DNA of 64,000 nt. Origin: an uncultured Chloroflexia bacterium (lineage in GTDB: Bacteria > Chloroflexota > Chloroflexia > Chloroflexales > Herpetosiphonaceae). Positions within the stretch are counted from its first letter, which is position 1; each line of letters begins with the position of its first letter. The notes below the pieces were generated by a model. The model saw only the letters and a program-made list of their open reading frames with translations, did no database searches and was not told the origin of the DNA. Where the stretch lies: assembly GCA_963767035.1 (NCBI GenBank), contig CAVYBW010000001.1:2438547-2502546 (forward strand). Reading direction: 5' to 3'. The position numbers were made by a program, and so were the translations under genes. Below are positions 1,885 to 62,614 of this stretch, piece after piece.

Positions 1885-4178
1885 ATGCTAGCCCAATCCC
1901 ACCTTCATCATTCCCTCAGCAAAAGCCTTGGTTTAGGAGGTTTGCATGCGTCTACGGATTGGGTTTATCGGCCTCAGATCGCCTTGATTGGGTTAACGGG
2001 CAGTTTTCGCGCTTTCAAGCCCGTGCAAGCAGCGCCAGCACAACCAGCCAGTACATCCAACCAAGCCAACGCTCCGCAAGGTGCAGCCCGGATCAAAGAG
2101 CAGGAGAGCAACAACACGCCAGCAACTGCGAACCAAATCATTGGTCAGTCGGGAATTGTGCGTGGCTATATTACAGCCAATGATAGTGATTTCTTTGCAA
2201 TTCCACTCAGCAGTGGTCAACGCTTAGCTGCTGGAACCATGACTTCAGCCTCAGTTGGCACCGCAGATAGTATTTTAACGCTCTACCATCCTGATGGCAC
2301 AACCGTTGTAGAGTTCGATAACGATGATGGAGGTTTTGGCTCAACGGCATCAGTGATCAGTTCGGCCATTATCACGAATACTGGCACCTATTATCTTAAG
2401 CTCACAGCCAATAACACCACCAATAAAATTTATTACTACGATCTCTACCTGCGGGTATTGACAGCGCCCAACGCCTGAGCAGAGAGCCCAATAACCCAGC
2501 TCAACTGCTGCCGGCCAGCGGCATTGTCAGCGGGGTGGTTTCAACAACTGCGGATCTTGATATCTTTCAAGTAAGCGTGAATGCTGGCGATACGATTTTT
2601 GCGACGCTCGATATGGACCCAGAACGCGATGGCATAAGCTGGAATGGCCGACTTGGCATTGGCAATTTTAATGGCGCCCCCCTGATCGTGAATGATACTA
2701 ATGCCGTTTCGCCTAATGCTGAATTCTTCCCTATGACCGTGAAAGAAGCTGGTAACTATATTATTCGGGTTGATAGCACTGTGGCAGTAAACAACGGCAG
2801 CTATATACTACAAGTGCAAATTATCCCTGCCGAGGCTCAGATCAACTGCCAAACCTATATGAGCACCGATATTAATCAGACCATTCCGGGTGGCCCCGGC
2901 ATGATTACATCCACCCTAACAATCCCCAATACTGGGTTGATTGAAGATTTGGATGTGATTGTTCAGCTGGATCACACGTTTATTCCTGACCTTGACACCC
3001 TCTTAACCGCCCCTGATGGCAATAGTATTGCCTTATTCACTGATGTTGGGGTCTCAACTGTTGCCCCAGCAACCATGAATGTGGTTATCGATGATGAAGC
3101 CGCAATTCCACTCTTATCAGGGATAACTGTTTCTGGCACGGTCTCACTACCAGAACTTTATCGTCTGAGTTGGTTCGATGGACAACGCAGCCAAGGCAAT
3201 TGGACACTCACCCTGTATGACGATGCTTCAGGCGATGGTGGCACATTAAAAAATTGGGGCCTGCGGGTTTGTGCCGCCCCACCACCAGTTGATTGCCCCG
3301 ATGGTTCAACCGTTACCACAATCTATAGCAGCGATTTCGAATCAAGCAATGGCGGCTTTACCCATGCTGGCACAAATGATTCATGGCAATATGGCCAACC
3401 AAATTTTGCGCCAATTGTTGGAAGCTATAGTGGTCTCAATAGCTGGAAAACCAATCTGACTGGGCCTTATTCCGCGTCAATGAGCGCCAATTTAACCTCA
3501 CCAGCAATCGATCTGAGCGGTGTGGTTGGCCCAATTCAAGTCCAATGGCAACAGCGCTATCAGTTGGATACCGCGGTGAACGATAACTATTCAGTCAGTG
3601 TGCTCGGCAATACAACCCAAACCCTTTTTGATCACCGCGACGGAATTATGCGCGAAACGGTCGGTAATCCAGTGGTCACAATTCAACAAAGTACCGGCTG
3701 GAGCCGTCAACTGCACACTATTAATGATTTTGTCGGTCAATCAATTAATCTCCAATTTCACCTTGATAGTGATGCAGCAATTCAATTAGCAGGGGTAGCA
3801 ATTGATAATGTTCAGGTTACTGGTTGTCTTTTGAATCCAACCGCAACCGCAACCGCAACTGCAACTGCAACCAACACGCCAACTGCGACCGCAACCGCAA
3901 CCAACACGCCAACCACGACCAATACACCGATTGTCAGCGATACCCCAACCAACACGCCAACTGCGACCGCAACCGCAACCAATACGCCAACAATTACGGT
4001 TACACCGACCAATACTAATACGCCAACAATTACGGCGACACCCAGCAATACGCCAACCAATACCAATACACCAACGATCACAATCACACCAAGCCATACC
4101 CCAACGGCTACGCCAAGCGTAACCCCGGGGCCAACCCTGATTCCGGTCTATCTGCCGTGGGTTGGAAAAGATGCTTAA
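1885..4178 (+). CDS. Secreted multidomain protein, paralog B. Domain order: PPC, PPC, P-domain, beta-sandwich domain, long Thr/Pro/Ala linker. Frameshift near 2465, possibly a second near 1980. The start may be ATG 1946 behind RBS 'taggagg'.
   Basis: ORF 1885..2478 ends in '[12 protein letters not shown]'. The other frame continues with '[51 protein letters not shown]', which is the paralog A motif. '[25 protein letters not shown]' is the P-domain. The TATATNTPT repeats at 3830-4110 form the linker. Confidence 0.6.
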
Positions 4179-8958: not shown

Positions 8959-9932
8959 GTGAGCACTATCGAGTTTCAGAATGTCCGCAAAAGTTATCCC
9001 AAAGCCACAACTGCGGCGCTCGCCGATATTTCACTGACGATCAATCGCGGCGAATTTGTGATTTTACTTGGGCCATCAGGCTGTGGCAAAACCACCTTGA
9101 TGAAGATGATCAATCGCTTGATTGAACCAAGTAGTGGCACGATTTTGCTCGATGGGGTCGATATTCAAACCGTCAATGCCACCAAGTTACGCCAGCAAAT
9201 TGGCTATGTTATCCAGCAAGTTGGCTTGTTCCCCACATGACGGTCGCCGAAAATATTGCGGTCGTGCCCAAATTGCTTGGCTGGCCCAAAGCTAAAATCC
9301 AAAGCCGCATCGACGAACTACTCAACCTGATTCAACTTGACCCAGACCAATTTCGCCAACGCTACCCGGCCCAAATCTCCGGTGGCCAAGCCCAACGGGT
9401 TGGTTTAGCCCGCGCATTGGCAGCCGATCCCGGCGTGATGTTGATGGATGAGCCATTTGGCGCAATCGATGCGATCACCCGCACCATTTTGCAAGATGAG
9501 ATGTTGCGTATTCAACAGCAATTGCATAAAACCATCGTGTTTGTAACCCACGATGTTGAAGAAGCGCTGCGCTTGGCCGATAAAATTGCAATTTTGCACG
9601 AGGGAATGATCGTGCAATACGATACGCCCTTGAATTTATTGCGCAACCCCGCTAATCAATATGTGGCCGATCTGCTAGGAGCCGATGATTTGGTGCGCCG
9701 TTTGAGTTTGATCCAAGTGCGCCATGTGCTTCAACCATTGCCCAAAAGCTATGATGCTGCGCTGGCAACGATTGAAGGTAGCCAGAATTTGCGCGAGGGA
9801 TTGAATCAATTGCTGGCTAGCAGCAGCGATCAACTGTTAGTCATCGAGCACAATCAACCAATTGGCACGCTCTCGTTAGCAGCGATTCACGCCTATCTGC
9901 ACCCTGAGGTACGCCATGAACGACATCGTTGA
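8959..9932 (+). CDS. ABC transporter ATP-binding protein (OpuCA-like, with C-terminal CBS-like region). Frameshift at 9237 splits ORFs 8959..9240 and 9237..9932.
   Basis: Walker A 'GPSGCGKTT', signature 'ISGGQAQRV', Walker B 'MLMDEPFGAID'. The break reads 'GLFPT*' then 'MTVAENI', where homologues have 'LFPHMTVAEN'. This looks like a missing C in a 'cccc' run. Confidence 0.8.
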
Positions 9933-13687: not shown

Positions 13688-13795
13688 AGGGGGTGCAGGG
13701 GGATTAAAGCCCCCTGCGTTTCCCTCCGGCGGAGGGACGGAAGGGTGGCGAACCATAGTGAGAACCAATAGATCTTTAACCACGAACTATGCTTG
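13688..13795. repeat. Dispersed structured repeat, family B
   Basis: 'gggggattaaagccccc' hairpin, 'tccctccggcggaggga' hairpin, then 'cggaagggtggcgaaccatagtg...ctttaaccacgaact'. Close copies lie at 21661..21712 and 21826..21905, with a fragment at 8840..8880. Confidence 0.6.
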
Positions 13796-13844
13796 ACATA
13801 GCCCAAAAGATTCTCTATACTCAGCTGGTAAGTGGTCTGACCAG

Positions 13845-14537
13845 TTGGTGAGTATGAGTGAATTACAACGACCAGCAGCGTATTGCGAACAACACTTGAT
13901 CAAAGCGATTATTGGTGGCAACTATGCCGCTGGTACGAGCCTGCCGAGCGAACGCGAGCTTGCTGGGCAATTGGGCGTTACCCGACCAACCTTGCGCGAG
14001 GCAATTCAACGCTTGGCACGTGATGGCTGGCTGGTGGTGCAGCAAGGCAAGCCCACCGTGGTTTGCAATATTTGGCAAGCTGGCGGTTTGGGCGTGTTGC
14101 GCAGTTTGCTGCAATATAGCAGCGAGCTACCAGCGCAAATTGTGCCGCAACTGCTAGCGGTGCGCTTGGATTTAGCACCAAGCTACACGGCAATGGCCAT
14201 CGAACAGCATGGCGAGCAAATCGAGGCCTTGTTGCAAACAGGTTTAGTTTTGGCCGATACTGCTGCGGCCTATGCCCAATTCGATTGGCAATTACAGCAT
14301 CAACTGACGATTGCTTCGATGAATCCAATTTATACCTTGATTTTAAATGGCTTTCGCGGCTTCTACCACATGATGGCCTTGGATTATTTTGCACTAGCGC
14401 AGGCACGTGAGCATTCAGCGGCATTTTATCGCACGCTGTTGCACGCTGCCAGCACTCACGATGTTGAGCTAGCGCGTGAGGCGAGCCGCGCTGCCATGCA
14501 CCAAAGCATTGAGTTTTGGCATGAATTAAATCACTAA
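13845..14537 (+). CDS. fadR: GntR-family transcriptional regulator, FadR subfamily
   Basis: 'LPSERELAGQLGVTRPTLREAIQRLARDGWLVVQQGKPT' closely parallels the E. coli FadR HTH region. The C-terminal domain is an all-alpha FadR_C-like fold. Confidence 0.7.
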   Translation: MVSMSELQRPAAYCEQHLIKAIIGGNYAAGTSLPSERELAGQLGVTRPTLREAIQRLARDGWLVVQQGKPTVVCNIWQAGGLGVLRSLLQYSSELPAQIVPQLLAVRLDLAPSYTAMAIEQHGEQIEALLQTGLVLADTAAAYAQFDWQLQHQLTIASMNPIYTLILNGFRGFYHMMALDYFALAQAREHSAAFYRTLLHAASTHDVELAREASRAAMHQSIEFWHELNH

Positions 14538-14555
14538 ATTAACAAAGGGGTTAGT

Positions 14556-16157
14556 ATGCGCCGTTGGAATGGTTGGGGCGATGAGAGCAAAGATTATGTG
14601 GTTAAAGCTGGTATTTTAGGCTTACTCAAGCAATTAATTGGGGTTGGCCCAATTCCCAGCGATGTAACCCTAGCCGAGGTTATTGCCCACGTGCCAGCAT
14701 CACGCTTGCCACACCACGACTTGATTAGCACTGATCCTGAGCTGCGAATTCGCCATGCTCGTGGCCAGAGTTTTGCCGATTTGGTGGCCTTGCGCAGCGG
14801 CGATTTGGGCCAAATTCCCGATGGTGTGGCCTTTCCCCAAACCAGCCAAGCGGTGCGCGAGTTGCTCGATTGGGCTAGCGCCAATACCGTAACCCTGATT
14901 CCCTATGGCGGCGGAACCAGCGTCGCAGGCCATATTAATCCAGTTGCTGGCGAACGGCCAATTTTGACCGTTAGCCTTGCCAAACTCAATCGCTTGCTGG
15001 AAATCAACCCAACTGCGCGGCTAGCACGGTTTGGGGCAGGCATCAAAGGTCCAGATCTGGAAGCACAATTGCGTGCTTTGGGCTTTACGCTCGGCCATTT
15101 TCCCCAATCGTTTGAGCTTTCGACGCTTGGCGGCTGGATTGCCACCCGTTCAAGTGGCCAGCAATCACTTGGTTTTGGGCGCATTGAGCAATTATGGGCT
15201 GGCGGACGAATTGAAACACCCCAAGGCGCATTAGAATTAGCGCCATTTCCGGCCTCGGCGGCTGGCCCTGACTTACGTGAAATGCTACTTGGCTCGGAAG
15301 GCCGCTATGGCATTATCACCGAAGCCACAGTACGCATTCGGCCAATTCCTGAGCTTGATGTGGTGCATGCAATCTTCTTCACTAATTGGGAACAGGCCCA
15401 AACTGCGGCCCGCACGATTGCCCAAGCCAACCTGCCGTTGGGAATGTTGCGGCTGAGCACGCCAACCGAAACCATGACCAACCTCGCCTTGGCAGGCCAC
15501 GAACGAGCGATTGGCTTGCTCGAAGGCTTTTTGAAATTGCGTGGCGTTGGCGCGGAAAAATGTATGCTGTTGGTTGGCTTTATTGGCAGCAAAGCCCAAG
15601 TTGCGCTCAGCCGCCAAGCAGTTTTGCGCTTGACCCGCCAACACGCTGGGGTGCATATCGGCCAAACCTTTGGCAAGGCATGGCGACATGGGCGGTTTCG
15701 CGCACCCTATTTGCGCAATCGGCTGTGGGAATTGGGCTATGGCGTGGATACGGTCGAGACTGCCACGACCTGGGAGAATCTCAACCCATTGTTAGAAACG
15801 CTAGAGCAGCGTTTGCGCAATGGCTTAGCTGCTGAGCACGAACAGGTGCATGTCTTCACCCATCTTTCACATTTCTACACTACTGGTTCCAGCATCTACA
15901 CTACCTATGCGTTTCGGCTAGGCGCTGATGCCCAAGCAACCATGGCCCGTTGGCACCAACTGAAAAGCGCTGCCAGCCAAGCAATTGTTGCCGCCGGCGG
16001 CACGATTAGCCATCAACATGGCGTGGGGCTTGATCATCGGCCCTATCTTGAGGCTGAAAAAGGCCGTTTGGGCATTGGCGCGTTGCAACAACTTGGCCAA
16101 CATTTCGACCCGCAAGGCTTGCTCAACCCCGCCAAATTATACGAGGATGGCCAATGA
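14556..16157 (+). CDS. FAD-linked oxidase of the alkyl-dihydroxyacetonephosphate synthase (AGPS) family
   Basis: 'RRWNGWGDESKDY', 'IPYGGGTSVAGH', 'ELSTLGGWIATRSSG', 'GSEGRYGIITEATVRIRPIPE' and 'ISHQHGVGL' track the conserved blocks of eukaryotic AGPS. The gene is 18 nt downstream of the fadR-like gene. Confidence 0.75.
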   Translation: MRRWNGWGDESKDYVVKAGILGLLKQLIGVGPIPSDVTLAEVIAHVPASRLPHHDLISTDPELRIRHARGQSFADLVALRSGDLGQIPDGVAFPQTSQAVRELLDWASANTVTLIPYGGGTSVAGHINPVAGERPILTVSLAKLNRLLEINPTARLARFGAGIKGPDLEAQLRALGFTLGHFPQSFELSTLGGWIATRSSGQQSLGFGRIEQLWAGGRIETPQGALELAPFPASAAGPDLREMLLGSEGRYGIITEATVRIRPIPELDVVHAIFFTNWEQAQTAARTIAQANLPLGMLRLSTPTETMTNLALAGHERAIGLLEGFLKLRGVGAEKCMLLVGFIGSKAQVALSRQAVLRLTRQHAGVHIGQTFGKAWRHGRFRAPYLRNRLWELGYGVDTVETATTWENLNPLLETLEQRLRNGLAAEHEQVHVFTHLSHFYTTGSSIYTTYAFRLGADAQATMARWHQLKSAASQAIVAAGGTISHQHGVGLDHRPYLEAEKGRLGIGALQQLGQHFDPQGLLNPAKLYEDGQ

Positions 16158-17759
16158 ACCCACGTTTGCAATGGAATGGCGCTTGGCGCGAACGCACGTG
16201 GCATGAGCTTGACCAGCCATGGGATGTGATCATCATTGGCGGTGGGATTACCGGAGCAGGCTTATTGCGCGAAGCAACCCGCTCGGGCCTCAAAGCCCTG
16301 CTGCTCGAAGCACGCGATTTTGCTTGGGGCACTTCAAGCCGCTCATCAAAATTAGTTCATGGTGGGCTACGGTATTTGGCCCAAGGCCAAGTGCGGGTAA
16401 CCTATGATTCAGTGGTTGAGCGCGAACAGCTCTTAAATGAAGCGCCAGGTTTAGTCGGGCCGTTGGGCTTTTTGATTGGCCTGCCACAGGGCAAACCGCT
16501 GAAACGTTGGGTTTATCAGGCTGGATTATTGGCCTACGATGCCCTTGCGCGACGCAGCGAACAGCATTATTTGAGCATGCCCAATTTGCGATTACTTGCG
16601 CCATACCTCAACGATGCCACATTAGCGGCTGGTTTGCGCTACAGCGATGCCCAAACCGATGATGCGCGTTTGGTTTTGCGCATTTTGCGCGAAGCAGCAG
16701 CAGCAGGCGCAACGTTATTAAATTACTGCGGCAGTTACGCAATTGGTGCGTGAAGATCAGCAAGTAGTTGGGGTTGTGGTGCGAGAGCAACTCAGCCAAC
16801 GCGAGCAAACACTCAAAGCTACAGCAGTAATCAATGCTACGGGCGTTTGGGTCGATCAATTGCGTCAACAGATTCAAGCGCCAGCTAAAATGCGCCCACT
16901 GCGTGGCAGCCATTTGGTGTTTGCCCAAGCCCAATTGCCACTGACACAAGCAATCAATTTAGAGCATCCCCGCGATCGCCGCCCGGTCTTTTTTGTGCCA
17001 TGGGAAGGCGTGAGCATCGTTGGCACCACCGACCTTGATCACGAGCCAGATTTGTGGCAAGAGCCAAGTATTAGCCCCGCTGAAGTTGATTATTTATTTG
17101 AAGCAGTTCAGAAGGCGTTTCCCAGTTTGGGTTTAGGCTTGAGCGATGTGATTTCGACTTGGAGCGGCGTGCGGCCTGTGGTCGATACCGGCGCGAGCGA
17201 TCCGTCCAAGGAATCGCGAGATTATGTCTTGTGGCAAGAGCAAGGCTTATTGACGGTAACTGGCGGCAAATTAACTACCTTTCGTTTGATCGCACTTGAA
17301 GCTTTGAAGCTATTACGCCAACGCTTGCCAAAAATCAAGCTTTGGCCGCATGCACCACGGCTCAATCCGGCTCCCGCTGATTTAGCTGGCAATCTCGCAC
17401 CGTTGATTAAGCAACGTTTGTTGGGGCGCTACGCCGCCGAAGCACCGGTGATGCTGCAACAATTGCCAGCCGCTGAATTTGGATCAATTGATGGTTTGCC
17501 AAGTTTATGGGCCGAAATGCGCTGGGCAGCTCGTTGCGAAGCAGTAACCAATTTGGGTGATTTGCTGTTGCGGCGTAGTCGTTTGGGCATATTACTAGCC
17601 CATGGCGCAGCCGCCTATCACGAGCAAATTCAGGCGATCTGTGCTGAGGAGTTGGGCTGGGACGCAGCACGCTGGCAAACTGAGTGGCATAGCTATCAAG
17701 CATTAATTGCCCAGCATTATGGCTTGCCAACCAGCCGTGTTAATGCTGCTCTAATTTGA
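16154..17759 (+). CDS. glpD: FAD-dependent glycerol-3-phosphate dehydrogenase (GlpD/GlpA-like). Frameshift near 16720-16730 splits ORFs 16154..16753 and 16743..17759.
   Basis: 'DVIIIGGGITGAG' is the FAD motif and 'SSRSSKLVHGGLRYL' follows. The second ORF continues with 'VVGVVVRE...VINATGVWVD...RGSHLV'. The start ATG overlaps the AGPS stop as ATGA. Confidence 0.75.
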
Positions 17760-17811
17760 CAATGACCCTAAGCAGGCTATAATGAAATCAAACCTTCTCC
17801 TCTCTCTTCTC

Positions 17812-17852: not shown

Positions 17853-17991
17853 GTGACATTTCACCACAGCAACCATGCAACCAATCATCAATCGCATCAA
17901 TTTGCTTGACGCAGACATTACATTGTGATATTTATAACATAGCAACCAATTAAAACCTGCTTACTCGCGGCTTGTGGATAAGGTGGCGTTG

Positions 17992-19245
17992 ATGAAGATC
18001 ACGATTCTGAGTTACGGTTCGCGCGGCGATGTGCAGCCATTCTTGGCACTTGGCCGAGCCTTGCATCATGTTGGGCATAGCGTTCAGTTGGTTGGCCCTG
18101 CCAATTTTGCCGAGTTAAGCCAAGCTGCGGGCGTGCCGTTCGTTTCAGTTGGGGTTGATCTTCAGGCGTATCTACGCGAACGCATCACGAGCTTATCAGG
18201 CTCACGCAACGTCATCAGCCTCTTAAAAAAGCTGCGCAACGAACTCAATGAGCTAATTGAGGAAATTGCCCATGAGACATTGCAGGCTTGCCAAGGCAGC
18301 GATTGTATCATTGGCGCAGGGCCACAAACTGCTAGTCTATCCCAAAAACTTGGGGTTCCATTTATTGAAGCCGTGCTTCAGCCAATGACTCCCACCCGTG
18401 CATTTCCCTCACCAATTGCCCCAAGCTGGCTCCAATTTGGTGGATTTGCCAACTATCTCAGCCACCTTGGGTTTGAGCAGATCTTTTGGCAGATCTTTCG
18501 GCCTACGGTCAATCGGGTGCGGACGCATGTGCTTGATTTGCCATCGTATGGCTTCAGCAGTCCGTTTGCCCAGATTCGCGAGCAGGTTTCACTGCGGCTG
18601 CATGCCTATAGTGCCCACGTAATGCCACGGCCAAGCGATTGGGCCGCCCAACATCAAGTAACGGGATTCTGGTTTCTGCCTCCACCCACCGATTGGACAC
18701 CACCCGCTGATCTCAGTGCTTTTCTGGCAGCCGGCCCTGCACCGATTTATATTGGCTTTGGCAGCATGATGGGTGGTGATCCACAGCAATTAACCGCGCT
18801 GGTGAGTGCCACCTTGGCTCGCTGCGGCCAACGTGGGATTTTAGCTGGCGGCTGGGGGGCGTTAGCCGAAACTGCAGAATCAACAGATCAGTTGTTTTTT
18901 GTTCAGGATGTGCCGCATTATTGGCTTTTACCACAAATGGCCGCGATCGTGCATCATGGCGGTGCTGGCACCACAGGCGCGGCTTTACGCAGTGGCAAGC
19001 CCTCGATTGTGGTGCCATTCGGCTTTGATCAAGCCTTCTGGGGGCGACGGGTGGCAGAGCTTGGCGTGGGTTCCGCTCCCGTTCCGCGCAAGCAACTCAG
19101 CGTTGATCGGTTGGCGAGCGCGATCACTCAAGTAACTAGCCAAGCAGCGATTCGCGAGCGGGCAGCGCAACTTGGTAGCCAAATTCAAGCTGAGTATGGC
19201 ACAGCGCAGGCAATCGATCATATCCATCGGGTCTTGCGCCGCTAA
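17992..19245 (+). CDS. GT1-family glycosyltransferase (UDP-glycosyltransferase, MGT/sterol-GT-like)
   Basis: N-terminal 'ILSYGSRGDVQPFLALGRAL' and C-terminal 'HHGGAGTTGAALRSGKPSIVVPFGFDQ' are UDPGT signatures. RBS 'aaggtgg'. An alternative GTG start is at 17974. Confidence 0.75.
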   Translation: MKITILSYGSRGDVQPFLALGRALHHVGHSVQLVGPANFAELSQAAGVPFVSVGVDLQAYLRERITSLSGSRNVISLLKKLRNELNELIEEIAHETLQACQGSDCIIGAGPQTASLSQKLGVPFIEAVLQPMTPTRAFPSPIAPSWLQFGGFANYLSHLGFEQIFWQIFRPTVNRVRTHVLDLPSYGFSSPFAQIREQVSLRLHAYSAHVMPRPSDWAAQHQVTGFWFLPPPTDWTPPADLSAFLAAGPAPIYIGFGSMMGGDPQQLTALVSATLARCGQRGILAGGWGALAETAESTDQLFFVQDVPHYWLLPQMAAIVHHGGAGTTGAALRSGKPSIVVPFGFDQAFWGRRVAELGVGSAPVPRKQLSVDRLASAITQVTSQAAIRERAAQLGSQIQAEYGTAQAIDHIHRVLRR

Positions 19246-19256
19246 TCGTCTCGGTT

Positions 19257-21392
19257 TTAGGCGATTTCTTCTGGCTCAAGCACTGGCAAATTCCACAATT
19301 CTTCGGGGACTTGCATATGAATCTGGGTGCCGCCCTGCTCAGGTGTGGAAATAGTCAGGCTGCCACCAATCACCATCAATAAACCGCGATGCAAACGCAA
19401 GCCACTGCCGCTGCCCGCTGAACTCGGCTGATTCGCCGCGATGCCCACGCCATCATCACAAATATCTACGACCAACCCATGTCGCCAATCGATCTGCACT
19501 TGAAGATTCAAGTGGCGGCGTGGGTCGTTGCCACGGGCATGGCGGGCAGCATTGCGCAGTGCTTCTTGCAAGGCATAGCTAATTACTTCGCCGATAAATT
19601 GCGGCGTATCAGCCAAACGAGCTTCAGCAGCAGGCGCAACCGTATATCCAACCTGATCAAAGGCATTGCCAAAATCAACCAGCACCATATCGTGCAGGGT
19701 TTGAGCCAAGCCACCTTGAGCTAAACGATAGGGCGTTGCTGGCGGCAAAGAACGAATCAGGGCTGAAAGCTTGGTATGCGCCTCGGATAAGGCCTTAATT
19801 GTTTGTTGCGCCATGGGATCGTTCGCTGAAACAGCGCTCAAATGAATCAAGGCAGCGTGAATTTGGGGCAAAACATCGTCGTGCAAGGTGCGCCGACCTT
19901 GACTACCCAACACTTTGACCTCGGCAATTCGTTGCCGCAGCACATCGCCTAACATTCGAGCCGCCCGTTCGCCCGCTAGCGCATCGGTCAAACGCGCACA
20001 GCAGGCCGCCGCAACTTCCATTAATTCTTCGCTATAAACCGCGCCGTTCTGCGGCGAACCAAGCACCAAAGCACCAGCTAAACCACGACCATCCCAGAGT
20101 GGGATGGCCCATTCAGCGCCACTTTGGGCCTTGAGCTGAATCCCTGATGTGCGGCGTTCTGATGAAATTGGCAATTGCTCAAGAATTGGAATTGGCGTTT
20201 GGCCCCAATGATAGCTGATGACTTTGGGCAAACCTGGCACTGCATCGCGTAGCAACAAACAGGCGCGTTCTGCTCGCAACACATCGCGGCTAATCGCCTC
20301 GACCAAGCCCTCGACTGAGGCCGAGAGACTAGCACCACCATCTAGCAAGCGATCTTGAAAGTGTAAACTGCCGACGAAAGGCCGTAAACGTTCCATAAAG
20401 GCCTCGTGCTCAACCCGATAGCGCCAACTTAACAAGCCATAAGCCAACGAGGCCAAGGTGGTGGCAAACAGCACAATATAAATCGAAGCCACTTCAAATG
20501 CGGCGCTAACCCCAACCATCAAAGCAAAACCACCAGCAATCGCCACCAGCCAGCGCCATTGATCGATGCGGTTCCATTGAGGTAGCGGGCGATCGGTAAA
20601 AGCCGCATAGGCGCCCATGGCTTGGCCAGCAGCACCCAAGGCCGCCGCCACCACGATCAACACCATCACATCCAATTGAAAAAGAGCTCGATCGCTCGAT
20701 CGGCCAGCCATGCTACTTCCGGCGTGCGCACCGATGAGCCTTGCGAAAAAACTACCACCGCGCCGATTAAGGCCACAATTCCGGCTAGCAAGCCAAGCAA
20801 CGATGTGCGAATCAGCCACGAACGCACCCGCAGCCACGCTTGATGCGGCAGATTATTGCGCCGACCAGGTCCAGTCAGCAAGGCATGAAATTGGCAAACT
20901 GAAACACATGATCAAGGCCAAAAGATAGCCAGCGACGATAAACGGCAAGTTGGCAACCAACCATGCTGGCACAAATTTCAAGGCCAAAATGCGGGCTTCT
21001 TGGGGCAATGGGTAAATCGCAGTCAGCACTAAGCCCAAAATCCCAATAAAAATGCCCATGGTAAACAACAGCAATTTATGAACGCGTAGGCTCTTGCCGC
21101 TCACCCCCGTATACCAGATCATCGTGGCATACCAAGCATACGGTGCGAGCAACGAAACCACGCTGATGACCCGCCACCAAAATGGTAGGCCCACATCAAC
21201 GACAGGTGGGCCACGCCCAATAATCGCCGCGTGAATCAAAAAGAACACGCCAGCCATCAGCAAGCCAGCCGCCGCCAAGCGTGGGCCACGTTCGCGCCCG
21301 CCATCAAGCGTCACGGTCATGCCCAACCATAAACAGATAATTGCATTGAAGATTGAAATTGCGAGGGCAATCGATTGCAGAATAAAAATCAT
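19257..21392 (-). CDS. Sensor histidine kinase. N-terminal multi-TM (7TMR-HK-like) domain, then GAF, HisKA and HATPase_c. Probably split by two frameshifts near 20840-20885 into ORFs 20853..21392, 20666..20881 and 19257..20837.
   Basis: C-terminal 'ICDDGVGIA...GSGLRL' is HATPase. A His-containing dimerisation helix sits around 'HDDVLPQIHAALIHL'. The 179-aa upstream ORF is entirely TM helices and a bridging ORF adds another TM helix. No response regulator is adjacent. Confidence 0.55.
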
Positions 21393-28559: not shown

Positions 28560-28982
28560 GTGTCCAGACCCAAATTGATACAGCTTAGGAGGCTCTCAGT
28601 GTACAACTCATCATCAATTAGCCGCCGCATCCTACTCGCCTTCGCAACCTTCGGTCTGATTTTTGTCAGTTTTGTTTACACTGCCCTCACAAGCAGCCAA
28701 ACCCTTCAATTTGATACACCAGCAGCTTCCAACACCGCATGGCAATGGGGCGACATCGAAACCATTACCGTTACCCAGCAATTACAAACCGCGCCACTTA
28801 ACACCGCATGGCAATGGGGCGACATCGAAACCATTACCATTACCCAGCAATTGCAAACCGCACCACTGAATACCGCATGGCAATGGGGCGATATCGAAAC
28901 CATTACCGTCACCCAGCAATTACAAACCACACCACTAAATGTCGCTTGGCAATGGGGCAATATCGAATCAGGCAAGCTTTAG
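28560..28982 (+). CDS. Membrane-anchored protein with 3.6 near-identical 23-aa tandem repeats (NTAWQWGDIETITVTQQLQTAPL)
   Basis: N-terminal TM helix 'ILLAFATFGLIFVSFVY'. The 69-nt DNA repeats at 28731-28976 are about 95% identical. Confidence 0.55.
   Translation: MSRPKLIQLRRLSVYNSSSISRRILLAFATFGLIFVSFVYTALTSSQTLQFDTPAASNTAWQWGDIETITVTQQLQTAPLNTAWQWGDIETITITQQLQTAPLNTAWQWGDIETITVTQQLQTTPLNVAWQWGNIESGKL
28731..28976 (+). repeat. 69-bp tandem repeat x3.6 inside a CDS
   Basis: Units start at 28731, 28800, 28869 and 28938 (partial). Confidence 0.85.
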
Positions 28983-42489: not shown

Positions 42490-43341
42490 TTATAGAATAT
42501 TAAGAATTGTTTGGTTTGATGTACGCTGTGCAATCAGCCTTGTTATATAATCTAATTCCATTCTTGCATCAGCTTGAAGTCCAAGGCTTCTCGCAATTCC
42601 ATTAGCATCAGTGCTTAAGCGAGTCGATAGTTTCAACTTTAGTTCATTATCCAAATCTTTCTCTAGCTGATATGCATGAATATGAGTAGAGTCAGAAATA
42701 TTAACTGTTGGATGAATGTGAGAAAAGTTGAATTCACCTTGCATATAGTTTAAGAATCTATCTTGGATTACTAAAACTAGTTTTTTGTTGATATATTCAA
42801 ATGTTTGAACTTTGTGATGCATTTGCATCATGATTGTTTTAGCAGTCATTTTCCAGTTAATACCATAGGGCTTTAATAAATCAGATTCACCAAAATCAAC
42901 AGCCAGACCTAAAGATTTCAGCAATAACTGGCGAGTAGGCCAGACAGTTCCAGTTGTATCAAGTGTTTGTAATTCAATCCCAACAAAGTCGTGTACAACT
43001 TTATCTTTCATTGAAACTAAGAAATAATCAACATTACCTCCAGGAATTGAAATTTCAGGAATTAAATGTAATTCATTTCCAGGTTCATGTAAGGTTAGTA
43101 AATGAAGGCAATCAATAAATATTTGACGACGTTGAGTTAGTCGCGTAGGGCAAATAATAATTGGTTCATTTAATTTTCCGCTAAGTACAGTACATGTTCC
43201 TATTGATATATTAGGATTACTTTTACGTACTTTATAGCATTTGCGATTTAAGAATACGCATTGCTGTTGATCAACAATATCAATCCAGTTTAATCGAATA
43301 TTTTCTGTGGAATGACCATAAAGTTCAACTATATTATTCAT
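42490..43341 (-). CDS. Putative Type II restriction endonuclease, partner of the adjacent methyltransferase
   Basis: No family motif recognised. Low GC, a 4-nt start/stop overlap with the MTase, and the size (283 aa) are typical of REases. Possible PD-(D/E)xK-like 'DYFLV...VGIELQ'. Confidence 0.5.
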   Translation of the reverse strand: MNNIVELYGHSTENIRLNWIDIVDQQQCVFLNRKCYKVRKSNPNISIGTCTVLSGKLNEPIIICPTRLTQRRQIFIDCLHLLTLHEPGNELHLIPEISIPGGNVDYFLVSMKDKVVHDFVGIELQTLDTTGTVWPTRQLLLKSLGLAVDFGESDLLKPYGINWKMTAKTIMMQMHHKVQTFEYINKKLVLVIQDRFLNYMQGEFNFSHIHPTVNISDSTHIHAYQLEKDLDNELKLKLSTRLSTDANGIARSLGLQADARMELDYITRLIAQRTSNQTILNIL

Positions 43342-44429
43342 TTTATTGAATCAATCCTTTCTTGAGTCAAATTCAAATATTCAGGTGATAAATCAATGCC
43401 AATAGATTTACGCTTAAGCGTTTTAGCAACAATCAGTGTAGTGCCTGTCCCACAGAATGGATCTAGAATTATCCCATTTGGTGGACAGGTAGCAAGAATT
43501 GGGATACGACATAGATCTGTTGGGTAAGCAGCAAAATGTGTATTACGTTTTTGAGTATCTTCAGGAAGAATATCCCATACATCTGTTGGCTTGCTCCCAT
43601 TGGGATGGTAACGTAAAAAATAGAATCCTCTATCACGTAACTCTTTAGCTCTACCTGAAATCTTTTCTTTATCAGAATGAGTTGTTCGTTGTTGTCCGCG
43701 AATCACCATTCTAAAGTCAGCAATCTCACCTGATGCAATACTAGCAAGCATCTGTTGTAGCGATTGAAAAGCGATTACTTTCTCTGCATCTGTCAAAGTA
43801 GTCGATAGTTCAATTTGACGTTTGTAACGAATACCTGAAACTCCTGTAGCAGATACAATTACTCCATTAACAACCTTTGAGGAACGTGGTTTAGTACGAA
43901 TAGAATCTAAATCATAATAATATTTAGGTTGTTTGACGAAATGAAATAAATATTCATGTACATTACCTAGCCTATCCCTTGCTGTATCCATACCACTTTT
44001 AACTTTATTCCAAATGATATCATTTCGTAGAATCCATTGATTTTCATCGATCAGTGTGAGAGCAATCCTCCAAGGAATACCAAGTAAATTCTTATTATGA
44101 TATGAATCGCCCATATTAAGCCAAAAAGAACCTTTAGATTTCAATACTCTTTTACATTCACTAAATACATTCATTAAATTTTCAATAAATTCCTGATATG
44201 TGTCTTCCATACCAATTCCATCATTTTCATATTGTCTCTTCTGCCAGTATGGAGGGGATGTCATAATCATATCAATAGATTCGCTAGGTAGGTTCTTAAG
44301 AATATAAAATGCATCTCCAAGTAATAAAATTGGGTTTCTATTATCATTATCTAAATATTGAGATAAAATATTTTTTTCAGTATATATATTTAATTTTGAT
44401 CTACCATAAACTGTAGCCATAAGAAACAC
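43338..44429 (-). CDS. Beta-class DNA methyltransferase (probably N4-cytosine, SPPY type)
   Basis: 'IMTSPPYW' is motif IV and 'LDPFCGTGTTLIVA' is motif I. Low GC. Confidence 0.8.
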   Translation of the reverse strand: MFLMATVYGRSKLNIYTEKNILSQYLDNDNRNPILLLGDAFYILKNLPSESIDMIMTSPPYWQKRQYENDGIGMEDTYQEFIENLMNVFSECKRVLKSKGSFWLNMGDSYHNKNLLGIPWRIALTLIDENQWILRNDIIWNKVKSGMDTARDRLGNVHEYLFHFVKQPKYYYDLDSIRTKPRSSKVVNGVIVSATGVSGIRYKRQIELSTTLTDAEKVIAFQSLQQMLASIASGEIADFRMVIRGQQRTTHSDKEKISGRAKELRDRGFYFLRYHPNGSKPTDVWDILPEDTQKRNTHFAAYPTDLCRIPILATCPPNGIILDPFCGTGTTLIVAKTLKRKSIGIDLSPEYLNLTQERIDSIK

Positions 44430-57274: not shown

Positions 57275-59860
<2,586 letters not shown>

Positions 59861-60035: not shown

Positions 60036-62614
60036 ATGTCTCGGCACTATTATGCCCGCGGGGCGATGTTGTTAGCCCTGCTAACAATGATTGGTGGTCT
60101 ATTGACCACTCAGAATGCCAAACCAACCGCCGCTGCTGCCAGTTGTGTTGTCACCTATCGCGTGCCCAATCAATGGGGCAATGGCTTCTTAGGCGATGTC
60201 AATATTCAAAATAATGGCGCTGCGATCAATAGCTGGACAGTTGGCTGGAGCTTTGCTGGCAATCAGCAAATTACCAACCTCTGGAATGGGGTTGTGACCC
60301 AAACTGGCCAAAACGTCAGTGTCAGCAACGCTGGCTGGAACGGTTTCATCGGCAGCGGTGGTGCTGTCAATGTTGGTTTCCAAGGAACCTACAGCGGAAG
60401 CAACGCCATCCCAACCGTGTTTACCTTGAATGGTGTGGTTTGTGGCGAAAACACGCCAACGCCAACCACTGGCCCAACCAACACCACGACCCCACCAACC
60501 GCAACCACGCGGCCAACCAATACCGTGGTTGTGCCAACCAACACGGCTGTGCCGCCAACCGCGACAACTCGGCCAACCAACACGGCTGTGCCGCCAACCG
60601 CGACGACTCGGCCAACCAACACGGCTGTACCGCCAACCGCAACCAATGGCCCAACCAGCACGCCACGACCAACGAGTATCCCAACGGTTGTGCCACCAAC
60701 CAGCACTCCAACCCTGCCAGGCGATGATACCTATGATCAACGCTTCTTGGAGCTGTATGCTGAATTGAAGAATCCAGCTAATGGTTACTTTAGCTCAGAA
60801 GGCGTGCCGTATCACTCAATCGAAACCTTGATTGTTGAAGCCCCTGATTATGGCCACGAAACCACATCCGAAGCCTATAGCTACTGGTTGTGGCTCGAAG
60901 CCATGTATGGCGAAGCAACTGGCAACTGGCAACCATTGGCCGATGCTTGGCGCAATATGGAAATGTACATCATTCCAACCAGCCAAGATCAACCATCGGT
61001 TGGGGCTTACAATGCCAATAGCCCAGCCACCTATGCTGGCGAATGGGAATTACCAAGCCAATATCCATCAGCCTTGCAAACCAACGTTTCAGTTGGCCAA
61101 GACCCAATTGCCGCTGAATTGCGCTCGGCCTATGGCACCAGCGATGTGTATGGCATGCACTGGTTGCTCGACGTTGATAACTGGTATGGCTATGGCCGCC
61201 GTGGCGATGGCACCAGCAAACCATCATATATCAATACCTTCCAACGGGGCGCACAAGAATCAGTTTGGGAAACCGTACCACACCCATCTTGGGAAAACTT
61301 CAACAATGGTGGCCCAAATGGCTTCTTGAATCTGTTCACTGGCGATGCTAGCTACGCTCGCCAATGGCGCTACACCAACGCCCCCGATGCCGATGCCCGC
61401 GCTGTCCAAGCGATCTATTGGGCAAAAGTGTGGGCCGACGAACAAGGTGGCTCACCGATCGTCAATGGCTTGGTAAGCAAGGCCGCTAAGATGGGCGACT
61501 ACTTGCGCTATGCCTTCTTCGACAAGTACTTCAAGCAAATTGGCTGTACTTCAACCTCGTGCCCAGCAGGCTCAGGCTACAGTAGCTCCCACTATCTGTT
61601 GTCGTGGTACTACGCTTGGGGCGGTTCGATCGGCAGTGGCGGCGCATGGTCATGGCGCATTGGCAGTAGCCACAATCACTTCGGCTACCAAAACCCAATG
61701 GCAGCCTGGATTTTGGGCAGCCAATCGGCTTTCAAGCCAGCCTCAACCAATGGTGCTCGAGACTGGAACACCAGTTTGACTCGCCAAATTGAGTTCTACA
61801 CCTGGTTGCAATCAAGCGAAGGCGCAATCGCCGGTGGCGCTACCAATAGCTGGAATGGCCGCTACGAAGCAGCTCCAGCTGGTACCAGCACCTTCTACAA
61901 TATGGCCTACGACGAAAAACCTGTGTACCACGACCCAGCAAGCAACACATGGTTTGGTTTCCAAGCTTGGTCAATGGAACGGGTCGCTGAATATTATTAC
62001 GCATCAGGCGATGTCAAAGCCAAAAACGTGCTCGACAAGTGGGTAACATGGGCTTTGGCCAACACCACCTTGACCAGCAATGGCAGCTATGAAATTCCAT
62101 CAACCTTGGCTTGGAGCGGCCAACCAGTTACCTGGAACGCCAGCAACCCAGCCACCAACACCAACTTGCACGTCACGGTCGTCGATAAAACCCAAGACGT
62201 GGGTGTTGCCGCCGCTTATGCCAAAACCTTGATGTACTACAGCGCCGCTACCAAGCGCTATGGCACCCAACACGTTGCTTCACAAACCATCGCCAAAGAA
62301 TTGATCGACCGGATGTGGACCCAGTATCGCGATGATAAGGGTGTTGCAAACCCCGAAACCCGCAAAGACTACAACCGCTTCGACGATTCAGTCTATGTTC
62401 CAAACGGCTGGACTGGCACCATGGCCAATGGTGATCCAATCAACAATTCATCAACGTTCTTGAGCATTCGCACCAAGTACGAAGATGATCCAGCCTTCCC
62501 AGCAGTGCAAGCCTACCTCAATGGTGGCCCTGCGCCAACCTTCACCTACCACCGCTTCTGGCTCAAGCCGATATCGCAATGGCTTACGCCGAATACGATC
62601 GCTTGTTCCAATAA
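60036..62614 (+). CDS. CBM2-linker-GH48 exocellulase (reducing-end cellobiohydrolase). C-terminal frameshift near 62556.
   Basis: N-terminal CBM2 '[23 protein letters not shown]'. The GH48 block '[37 protein letters not shown]' is present. After 'HRFW' the +1 frame gives the conserved end '[17 protein letters not shown]', with one G missing in 'tggg'. Confidence 0.8.

Follow-up and report, generated by a model that had tools for sequence, protein, structure and literature searches.

A predicted FadR-regulated operon for AGPS-like and GlpD-like flavoproteins in a Herpetosiphonaceae bacterium, with a possible role in glycerol lipid salvage

Introduction

Alkyl-DHAP synthase (AGPS/ADPS; EC 2.5.1.26) can swap the alkyl group of alkyl-DHAP for another and, if no alcohol is available, hydrolyses acyl-DHAP. 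Catalytic roles have been described for two Arg residues and a Tyr residue of the enzyme (PMC3509576); its active-site loop reads HHH and spans residues 615–617 of the guinea-pig protein. The full eukaryote-type gene set is present in only 73 bacterial genomes, mostly Myxococcota (10.1101/2025.10.10.681575). According to two reviews, alkylglycerol monooxygenase (AGMO) is the only enzyme known to cleave the 1-O-alkyl bond of glycerol ethers (PMC9192799, PMC7911779).

The closest described bacterial system is the PA3026-PA3025-PA3024(-PA3023) operon of Pseudomonas aeruginosa, which is activated by the AraC regulator GliR/PA3027 (PMC8151288). GliR co-induces this operon and the phospholipase gene PA3464. 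When the operon was deleted, no phenotype emerged from Biolog plates or from growth with glycerol, ether lipids not being among the conditions, and some hosts reportedly have no other glpK/glpD genes (PMC8151288). Kotecka et al. have already suggested, without proof, that the operon functions in ether-lipid biosynthesis (PMC8151288). The abundance of the PA3026 protein differs between growth on C16 and C18 alkanes (PMC5491041).

Here, we analyse a related locus in a 64,000-nucleotide stretch of DNA from a Herpetosiphon species of the Chloroflexota (the 64-kb window), and compare it with other loci that encode AGPS homologues.

Results

Organization of the operon

The features of the locus are as follows:

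13793..13821, + strand: sigma-70-type promoter (TTGACA, 17-nt spacer, TATACT; 11 of 12 consensus positions match)
13825..13846, no strand assigned: predicted FadR operator, 22 nt; the minus strand reads AACTGGTCAGACCACTTACCAG
13833-13843: operator core palindrome, TGGTCTGACCA
13854..14537, + strand: fadR, encoding a 227-aa FadR-type GntR regulator; the reading frame is open from TTG 13845
14556..16157, + strand: AGPS-like FAD enzyme of 533 aa, clade A, with an HQH loop
16154..17759, + strand: GlpD/GlpO-family FAD dehydrogenase, in two ORFs (16154-16753 and 16743-17759)
16726..16726, + strand: extra C that shifts the GlpD-like frame; the sequence here is AATTACTGC, against AATTA-TGC in H. llansteffanensis
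17756..17783, + strand: second promoter, for the downstream glycosyltransferase gene (12 of 12 consensus matches)

The fadR, AGPS-like and GlpD-like genes are all present at the sites given in the preliminary description, and are predicted to form a three-gene operon served by one sigma-70 promoter. As given in the preliminary description of the locus, the fadR stop is separated from the AGPS-like start by an 18-nt gap, and the AGPS-like and GlpD-like genes share an ATGA overlap, in which ATG 16154 overlaps TGA 16155-16157. The GlpD-like gene is predicted to be translationally coupled to the AGPS-like gene. The glycosyltransferase gene's own promoter is the predicted mark of the 3' end of the operon, and in the other loci compared that gene was not a conserved neighbour.

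FadR and its predicted operator

The fadR product contains the Pfam domains GntR (1.2e-20) and FadR_C (3.6e-38) and scored 218.6 bits against NCBIfam FadR NF003444, above the cut-off of 189; against the stricter TIGR02812 it scored 210.3 bits, below the cut-off of 249.2. It aligned with E. coli FadR (1hw1) over the whole length and without gaps (E = 3.5e-51). These matches bear out the earlier assignment to the FadR subfamily of GntR regulators, and by sequence the protein is a predicted FadR orthologue. The gene had been placed at 13845; the frame is indeed open from there, but TTG 13845 falls within the operator, and the start is most likely ATG 13854, which is the start in the public gene call and yields the publicly recorded 227-aa form. 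The equivalents of E. coli FadR R213, S219 and W223 are kept, while that of G216 is not; we take all four to have ligand roles.

A FadR box had been anticipated upstream of the gene, and one was found at 13825-13846. The element is a palindrome of the TGGTCNGACCA type that agrees at 16 of 17 positions with the E. coli-type box of the preliminary description. Each of the 14 loci that encode FadR has the 22-nt element, in either orientation, at a distance of 20-50 nt upstream of the fadR gene, and it is also present in two further loci without a called fadR ORF. The exact 11-mer is found in 9 of 81 loci, with eight of the nine copies at that upstream position. Loci that conserve the operator come from Chloroflexota, Bacillota, Acidimicrobiia, Holophagales and Archangium. 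The promoter lies 3 nt upstream of the box. The predicted operator has the -10 hexamer on one side and the fadR ATG on the other, a position expected for a repressor, and covers the likely transcription start.

The AGPS-like flavoenzyme

The second gene encodes a protein with the Pfam domains FAD_binding_4 (PF01565, 8.6e-27) and FAD-oxidase_C (PF02913, 8.3e-40). Its closest solved relatives are Dictyostelium ADPS (2uuu, 2.7e-80) and mammalian AGPS (4bby, 1e-61), which scored 273 and 212 bits, respectively, compared to 89 bits (2.4e-24) for D-lactate dehydrogenase. When the PDB was searched with Foldseek, the first 37 matches were all AGPS chains, with TM scores of 0.71-0.80, versus ≈0.6 for D-lactate dehydrogenase. 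R299, R387 and Y448 correspond to R352, R447 and Y508 of Dictyostelium ADPS, and their equivalents are invariant in 66/66 clade-A proteins. By sequence, catalytic Arg/Arg/Tyr and fold, the flavoenzyme thus belongs to the AGPS superfamily, as first proposed. Two of the three sequence blocks previously cited for it are present, WNGWG at residues 4-8 and GGGTS at residues 118-122; the third, given as HHGVG, actually reads S-H-Q-H-G-V-G, with H486-Q487-H488 in place of the HHH loop.

The GlpD-like gene and its frame break

The third gene had been called glpD. Its product has the Pfam domains DAO and DAO_C and the family motifs, and the repaired protein has 3da1 as its closest solved relative (E = 3.6e-71). 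However, at 295.9 bits it falls below the NCBIfam GlpD equivalog cut-off of 360, as do its relatives from H. geysericola (304.1) and Pseudomonas (270.6, locus L015), and the frame is split by the extra C at 16726.

This C is probably an assembly error, since two more genes within 13 kb, encoding an ABC ATPase (9229) and a histidine kinase (20679/20888), are, in comparison with H. llansteffanensis, also broken by 1-nt indels that are not compensated, a rate that suggests such errors. The question is separate from that of function. We considered the possibility that the frameshift is real, and that the GlpD-like gene has recently become a pseudogene in an operon decaying in this strain. A 199-aa truncated product is recorded for this assembly, and for this assembly only, and the site is not a homopolymer. 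However, the 338 codons past the shift are still open and ≈90% identical to the unbroken orthologue, and four other Herpetosiphon species have an unbroken 529-aa version of the gene, as does every other genome of the genus sampled. Decay of the operon therefore seems unlikely.

Conservation of the gene pair

In the window, and likewise in 79 of 80 loci from more than eight phyla, the AGPS-like gene has a GlpD-like gene of the same orientation directly on its 3' side. An FGGY kinase gene comes next in 54 loci, and a YegS-type lipid kinase gene is present in eight, holding the kinase position in one of them (L079). The AGPS-like and GlpD-like genes are thus a fixed pair across bacterial phyla, usually accompanied by a kinase. 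No FGGY homologue was found in the 64-kb window, and the kinase-less layout with FadR recurs elsewhere (L004, L005, L007, L014, L018, L038, L048, L062 and L077). The upstream neighbours among the loci scanned are regulators, AraC-type in 21-22 and FadR in 13. The FGGY protein distantly resembles glycerol and xylulose kinases. Both it and the GlpD-like protein fall below every NCBIfam equivalog cut-off, which suggests that they are subfamilies of their own.

Two clades of bacterial AGPS homologues

In a neighbour-joining tree built from simple distances and midpoint-rooted without an outgroup, the Herpetosiphon protein fell inside a monophyletic clade A, while clade B and eukaryotic AGPS made up the other branch. 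The Gln of the HQH loop is invariant in clade A (66/66 proteins), whereas all 18 clade-B and all three eukaryotic proteins have HHH. The gene contexts differ as well. At least one ether-lipid partner (acyltransferase, FAR-like, SDR or PEDS1-type) is found in 7/7 clade-B contexts, comprising a PF01553 acyltransferase in five, adh_short in five, a NAD_binding_4 FAR-like protein in four and a PF10520 desaturase in one; none of the seven has a GlpD-like or FGGY neighbour. Conversely, neither the 81 clade-A loci nor the window contained homologues of an acyltransferase, FAR or PEDS1, so that the search for a DHAP acyltransferase and a FAR suggested with the original reading came back empty over this range. 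An alkyl-DHAP reductase was not linked to the operon in the loci compared. Clades A and B differ in where they fall in the tree, in their loop motif and in their gene neighbourhoods. The clade-B clusters are probably of the Myxococcus MXAN_1676 type.

Discussion

Proposed function

The constant quinone-type GlpD-like partner, the usual kinase and the inducible regulators together correspond to the arrangement of an operon for catabolism or salvage. Judging from sequence and gene context, we tentatively suggest that the operon salvages or breaks down glycerol lipids of the ether or ester type, and does not serve de novo ether-lipid synthesis. The co-induction of the P. aeruginosa operon with PA3464 (PMC8151288) would agree with this. 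So would the alkyl exchange and acyl-DHAP hydrolysis of AGPS. FadR would repress the operon until rising long-chain acyl-CoA released the repression. In loci that have an FGGY or YegS-type kinase, this enzyme would first phosphorylate the free glycerol lipid. The GlpD-like protein would oxidise the 1-substituted sn-glycerol-3-phosphate (1-O-alkyl or 1-acyl) to alkyl- or acyl-DHAP, and the AGPS-like enzyme, through the flavin-N5 adduct chemistry of AGPS, would then free the C1 substituent. Replacement of this substituent by water or a fatty acid would yield DHAP or acyl-DHAP, together with a fatty alcohol or acid.

It is a more doubtful proposition that the AGPS reaction proceeds towards cleavage in the clade-A "AGPS" enzymes, by a route that would lead from alkylglycerol via alkyl-glycerol-3-phosphate and alkyl-DHAP to DHAP and a fatty alcohol. 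If true, this would be a second, non-oxidative route of ether-lipid degradation besides AGMO, and metagenomic counts of "agps" genes would overstate the capacity for ether-lipid synthesis.

Several points count against salvage. The P. aeruginosa deletion strain had no phenotype under the conditions given above (PMC8151288). The operons of Herpetosiphon and many Chloroflexota have no kinase, and we know of no lipid substrates for FGGY kinases. A YegS-type kinase also occurs near a clade-B cluster (L086), in a biosynthetic context. E. coli FadR can activate biosynthetic genes too. Furthermore, clade A is ≈33% identical to Dictyostelium ADPS, the same as guinea-pig AGPS is, so that true AGPS activity is possible.

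Alternative functions

The preliminary description had taken the three genes for a minimal unit of alkyl-glycerone phosphate synthesis. The data do not support this, since the enzyme belongs to clade A, whose members have the HQH loop and only GlpD-like and kinase neighbours, in contrast to the partners of clade B. De novo ether-lipid synthesis, in which the GlpD-like protein would supply DHAP, an unlinked acyltransferase would form acyl-DHAP and the AGPS-like enzyme would swap in a fatty alcohol, is consequently unlikely. It would agree with the variation of PA3026 abundance between the two alkanes (PMC5491041). The superfamily membership, the Arg/Arg/Tyr residues and the AGPS fold are also as expected for a synthase, and FadR ties the operon to acyl-CoA levels. 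Moreover, fatty alcohols would be available in many hosts (Marinobacter, Oleiphilus, Ketobacter, Pseudomonas), since these degrade alkanes or produce wax esters. However, partners for synthesis are missing from all 81 clade-A loci and the window but accompany every clade-B context, and the few bacterial genomes with the full eukaryote-type set are mostly Myxococcota (10.1101/2025.10.10.681575). DHAP is a glycolytic intermediate, making a dedicated respiratory dehydrogenase unnecessary, and the linked kinase and inducible regulators suit catabolism better. To our knowledge, P. aeruginosa does not produce ether lipids. An acyltransferase would not be needed if the operon remodelled the cell's own ester lipids into ether lipids, with the GlpD-like protein turning 1-acyl-glycerol-3-phosphate into acyl-DHAP and the AGPS-like enzyme adding a fatty alcohol, whenever acyl-CoA or alcohols were abundant. 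While this would account for the obligatory pairing of the two genes, and is consistent with FadR control and fatty-alcohol-rich hosts, it would still require both a supply of fatty alcohol and a reductase for alkyl-DHAP, and neither is linked. The kinase would be redundant, lysophosphatidate being already phosphorylated, and we are not aware of ether lipids from these hosts. Remodelling is thus quite unlikely.

We consider it very unlikely that the operon serves ordinary catabolism of glycerol or glycerol-3-phosphate by kinase and GlpD, in which case the flavoenzyme, instead of performing AGPS chemistry, would be a simple dehydrogenase or oxidase for a 2-hydroxy acid or similar compound. The GlpD-like protein keeps GGLRY, SGVRP and GGKLT, which we take to be the phosphate-contacting motifs of GlpD; the resemblance of the FGGY protein to glycerol and xylulose kinases points the same way, and the VAO family does include D-lactate and glycolate dehydrogenases. 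The reported lack of other glpK/glpD genes in some hosts would also fit, but the P. aeruginosa deletion strain is normal on glycerol (PMC8151288). Further, the flavoenzyme is far closer to AGPS than to D-lactate dehydrogenase in both score (273 versus 89 bits) and fold (TM 0.8 versus 0.6), it retains the AGPS-specific N-terminal WNGWG domain and the catalytic Tyr, and the GlpD-like and kinase proteins are both under the equivalog cut-offs.

Comparison with known systems

Herpetosiphon FadR shares the operator type of E. coli FadR (1hw1/1e2x) and keeps R35, R45, T47, R49, G66 and K67, presumably most of the DNA-contacting residues. It differs in T46, which is Pro, and H65, which is Gln, and in its host, a member of the Chloroflexota. 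The GlpD-like protein has DAO and DAO_C and the three motifs in common with GlpD/GlpO (3da1, 2rgh, 2qcu); unlike these, proteins of its type score under the GlpD equivalog cut-offs and are always paired with an AGPS-like gene.

Eukaryotic AGPS/ADPS (2uuu, 4bby) resembles the Herpetosiphon protein in its fold (TM 0.75-0.80), and the two have the Arg/Arg/Tyr residues, both Pfam domains and the WNGWG domain at the N-terminus in common. The Herpetosiphon protein is however only 30-33% identical, has HQH instead of HHH, and belongs to a separate clade with other genomic partners. The clade-B clusters (e.g., Silvanigrella aquatica L082 and metagenomic L083-L088) have the superfamily and Arg/Arg/Tyr in common with it, but their proteins carry MKWWGWG at the N-terminus and HHH in the loop, and they group with the eukaryotes. 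AGMO would share cleavage of 1-O-alkyl glycerol ethers with clade A if the cleavage reading holds. It is an oxidative, tetrahydrobiopterin-dependent membrane enzyme without homology to the clade-A proteins, whereas the proposed route would depend on flavin, would involve no oxidation of the ether carbon, and would act on the phosphorylated keto form.

The closest likeness is to the P. aeruginosa PA3026 operon, which has the same gene order, an AGPS-like FAD oxidoreductase followed by a GlpD-like protein. The Pseudomonas loci in our set (e.g., L015, L017, L023) show the published arrangement of AraC, FAD enzyme, GlpD, FGGY and YegS, and their AGPS-like proteins are 56-58% identical to that of Herpetosiphon. 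In Herpetosiphon, a predicted co-transcribed FadR repressor takes the place of the divergent AraC activator, and neither the operon nor the window encodes an FGGY or YegS kinase. Based on synteny, the Herpetosiphon operon is apparently orthologous to PA3026-PA3024, and by its predicted gene content it is a further case of an already known operon type.

Organization of the operon

The region from 13793 to 17783 contains, in order, a promoter, a 22-nt element, fadR, an AGPS-like gene, a GlpD-like gene and the promoter of the next gene:

13793–13821, sigma-70-type promoter, TTGACA-N17-TATACT, 11 of 12 consensus positions
13825–13846, 22-nt FadR-box element, box sequence read on the minus strand
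13845–14537, ORF of the GntR/FadR gene; ATG 13854 is the start in the public gene call
14556–16157, AGPS-like FAD enzyme, 533 aa, after an 18-nt gap from fadR
16154–16753 and 16743–17759, ORFs in which the GlpD-like gene is read; its start (ATG 16154) overlaps the preceding TGA
17756–17783, promoter of the next gene, a glycosyltransferase forming a separate unit, perfect match (12 of 12)

Since the glycosyltransferase has a perfect promoter of its own, the operon consists of fadR and the AGPS-like and GlpD-like genes. These three identifications, made in the preliminary description, hold, as do the 18-nt gap and the start/stop overlap. Two of the motif blocks that it named in the flavoenzyme (WNGWG and GGGTS) are present, but the third reads SHQHGVG and not HHGVG. 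The window belongs to a species of Herpetosiphon. The AGPS-like protein is 90% identical to its counterpart in H. llansteffanensis, and the flanking region is syntenic.

A perfect 8-bp GC-rich hairpin (GCAGGGGG-ATTAAAG-CCCCCTGC, 13695–13717) separates the operon promoter from the GH39-like gene upstream. It may be the terminator of the GH39-like gene; its T tract is weak, and it was not flagged by the terminator scan. Downstream of the operon, the gene for the macrolide-type glycosyltransferase (17974–19245) is intact in the window and encodes 423 aa. Its equivalent in H. llansteffanensis (L001:9420-10672) is split into 353 and 59 aa by a single-nt difference close to window position 19038.

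The FadR regulator and its operator

The regulator scored 218.6 against the NCBIfam FadR model, above the cut-off of 189, and could be aligned to E. coli FadR (1hw1) over its full length without gaps (3.5e-51). A FadR box upstream of fadR, which the preliminary description had suggested looking for, is present: the minus strand of 13825–13846 reads AACTGGTCAGACCACTTACCAG, agreeing at 16 of 17 positions with the E. coli-type consensus quoted there, and it is conserved across loci. A relaxed pattern allowing two mismatches did not rise above chance when applied to the window alone (1 found, 1.44 expected), and the significance of the box therefore comes from its exact core and its conservation. 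The core, TGGTCNGACCA, was found in 9 of 81 related loci, with 8 of these copies just upstream of fadR. All 14 FadR-carrying loci have a copy with at most two mismatches 20–50 nt upstream of fadR, and two further loci also have one; the loci with the conserved box belong to Chloroflexota, Bacillota, Acidimicrobiia, Holophagales and Archangium. As it follows the –10 hexamer and precedes the start codon, the predicted box is in a repressor position, and the operon is thus most likely autorepressed by its own FadR. By homology, repression would be relieved by long-chain acyl-CoA.

A frameshift in the GlpD-like gene

Compared to H. llansteffanensis, the split of the GlpD-like gene is caused by one extra C at 16726. 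Deleting this base gives a protein of 534 aa, which can be aligned from end to end to its orthologues, intact and 529 aa long, in H. geysericola, H. llansteffanensis, H. giganteus and Herpetosiphon sp. NSE202. The 338 codons 3' of the shift remain open, and no assembly other than this one has the 199-aa truncated form on record. Judged against H. llansteffanensis, uncompensated 1-nt indels interrupt two more genes within the same 13 kb:

8959–9240 and 9237–9932, ABC ATPase, indel at 9229
19257–20837 and 20853–21392, histidine kinase, indels at 20679 and 20888

The single-base breaks at 9229, 16726, 20679 and 20888 suggest an error-prone, perhaps long-read, assembly. Programmed frameshifting was rejected, because the insertion is missing from every other Herpetosiphon orthologue, and we consider the shift at 16726 to be quite probably an assembly error rather than the mark of a pseudogene. 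An independent 2193-nt Logan contig (ERR11593883) encodes an identical AGPS-like protein and ends ≈5 nt before 16726; this end could reflect a variant at that position.

Elsewhere in the window, a low-GC island on the minus strand (42490–44429; GC 0.38 vs. ≈0.50) contains a gene for a DNA methyltransferase with the motif TSPPYW (43338–44429) and, overlapping this gene by 4 nt, a 283-aa ORF (42490–43341); the two are probably a type II restriction-modification pair that was acquired. In-frame-looking, CCA/ACC-rich tandem repeats with periods of 18–78 (3838–4105, 28731–28967, 59324–59532 and 60530–60662) probably encode Pro/Thr-rich linkers in secreted proteins.

Two clades of bacterial AGPS homologues

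An AlphaFold model of the AGPS-like protein (mean pLDDT 76) matched AGPS structures first (37 chains, TM 0.71–0.80), followed by D-lactate dehydrogenases (TM ≈0.6). Equivalents of R352, R447 and Y508 of the Dictyostelium enzyme (ADPS), residues that matter according to mutagenesis (PMC3509576), are kept in all 66 full-length GlpD-linked proteins, each of which also has the middle His of the HHH loop replaced by Gln. When Dictyostelium ADPS was used as the query, a second, apparently bacterial set of homologues was found, with 42–47% identity to the query. Bacterial AGPS homologues form two clades, A (including the window protein) and B, whose active-site loops differ and whose gene neighbourhoods exclude each other.

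Table. Comparison of the two clades. Tree positions are from a simple distance tree of 46 sequences without an outgroup.
Feature: clade A; clade B
Tree position: monophyletic, separate branch; with eukaryotic AGPS
Identity to eukaryotic AGPS: 26–32%; 31–45%
Active-site loop: HQH; HHH
N-terminal motif: RRWNGWG; MKWWGWG
GlpD-like gene adjacent: 79/80 loci; 0/7
FGGY kinase adjacent: 54/80 loci; 0/7
PF01553 acyltransferase nearby: none found; 5/7
Short-chain dehydrogenase nearby: generic matches, 3 loci only; 5/7
NAD_binding_4 FAR-like reductase nearby: none found; 4/7
PF10520 PEDS1/CarF-type desaturase nearby: none found; 1/7

All seven clade-B contexts contain at least one ether-lipid partner gene. 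With the clade-B partner proteins as queries, no acyltransferase, fatty acyl-CoA reductase (FAR) or desaturase was found in the 81 clade-A loci or the window, the sole matches being generic short-chain dehydrogenases in three loci. The clade-B locus L086 (2757–8006) encodes a FAR-like reductase, AGPS, a fused acyltransferase-SDR and a PF10520 (PEDS1/CarF-type) desaturase, with a YegS-type kinase upstream, and looks like a complete plasmalogen set.

The module across bacteria

Scanning one genome per species with the flavoenzyme alignment gave 80 loci (49–59% identity), in Chloroflexota, Pseudomonas, Marinobacter, Oxalobacteraceae, Moraxellaceae, Archangium, Holophagales, Gemmatimonadota, Bacillota, Acidimicrobiia and Vulcanimicrobiota. 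The GlpD-like gene lies directly 3' of the AGPS-like gene on the same strand in all but one, where the contig ends, and is followed in 54 loci by a gene for an FGGY kinase of ≈520 aa; none was found in the window. Both the GlpD-like proteins and the FGGY kinase score under every NCBIfam equivalog cut-off, indicating that they are distinct subfamilies. YegS/DAGK-type lipid kinases occur in 8 clade-A loci. One of these, of the YegS/Rv2252/BmrU family, takes the usual FGGY position directly after the GlpD-like gene in an uncultured member of the Eubacteriales (L079:10371-11336), and the module may accept either type of kinase. Upstream regulators are AraC-type in 21–22 loci and FadR in 13 of the loci scanned, while the remaining neighbours in the census are lineage-specific housekeeping genes (FtsH, S1, LexA, MoeA, type II secretion). 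The window operon is an ordinary member, in a FadR-regulated, kinase-less form, of this widespread and already described family, with a clear predicted FadR autoregulatory circuit.

In a Chloroflexota MAG (L081:8616-13421), the order is AGPS-like, FGGY, a 539-aa PLP-dependent decarboxylase-family protein and GlpD-like; the top NCBIfam match of the extra gene, below cut-off, is the tyrosine decarboxylase MfnA.

Synthesis or breakdown

AGPS can exchange the alkyl group on alkyl-DHAP, and can hydrolyze acyl-DHAP if the alcohol is absent. The preliminary description had read the operon as a unit for ether-lipid synthesis. This reading is not supported, because clade A is never found with synthesis partner genes; it is always accompanied by a respiratory-type dehydrogenase, usually with a kinase as well, and the regulators are inducible; and DHAP needs no dedicated supplier. 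In the window itself, a crude motif screen and tblastn found no FAR or glycerolipid acyltransferase. De novo synthesis is therefore unlikely. We tentatively propose, from gene content and order, that the operon may instead serve the salvage or breakdown of 1-substituted glycerol lipids, and the layout is a chemically complete linear route in that direction. The kinase, where present, would phosphorylate the free 1-substituted glycerol, the GlpD-like enzyme would oxidize C2, and the C1 substituent would be released via AGPS-type flavin-N5 chemistry.

The salvage proposal has several weak points: the Herpetosiphon operon has no kinase, a YegS-type kinase also occurs near one clade-B cluster, the phylogeny is a simple distance tree that has no outgroup, and FGGY kinases are not known to accept lipids. 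A variant in which the lipids are remodelled appears somewhat less probable even than de novo synthesis. The most doubtful of these readings is ordinary glycerol catabolism accompanied by an unrelated dehydrogenase. All such gradings are rough estimates and do not fully partition the possibilities.

Implications and comparison with P. aeruginosa

Surveys of genomes and metagenomes take AGPS homologues as a sign that bacteria make ether lipids (e.g., PMC11868695), and KEGG- and IMG-style annotation names the AGPS-like family alkyl-DHAP synthase. The split of bacterial “agps” genes into two clades matters for such counts: given the different loops and exclusive neighbourhoods, the presence of the widespread GlpD-linked clade may say nothing about ether-lipid synthesis. 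Degradation or remodelling of glycerol ether lipids by clade A, if it occurs, would close a gap, since our literature searches found no bacterial route for alkylglycerol ether cleavage; nor did they find a paper connecting Herpetosiphon with ether lipids. It would also provide a function for the regulon of GliR, the AraC-type regulator PA3027 of P. aeruginosa.

The Pseudomonas loci (AraC, FAD enzyme, GlpD-like, FGGY, YegS) have the PA3027–PA3023 layout of P. aeruginosa. Kotecka et al. showed that GliR strongly induces PA3026–PA3023, along with the phospholipase gene PA3464 and PA3342, and that deletion of the operon gave no phenotype (PMC8151288). By database mining, they proposed a route from glycerol to alkylglycerone phosphate (PMC8151288), as did the preliminary description, whose idea is thus already in print and still unproven.
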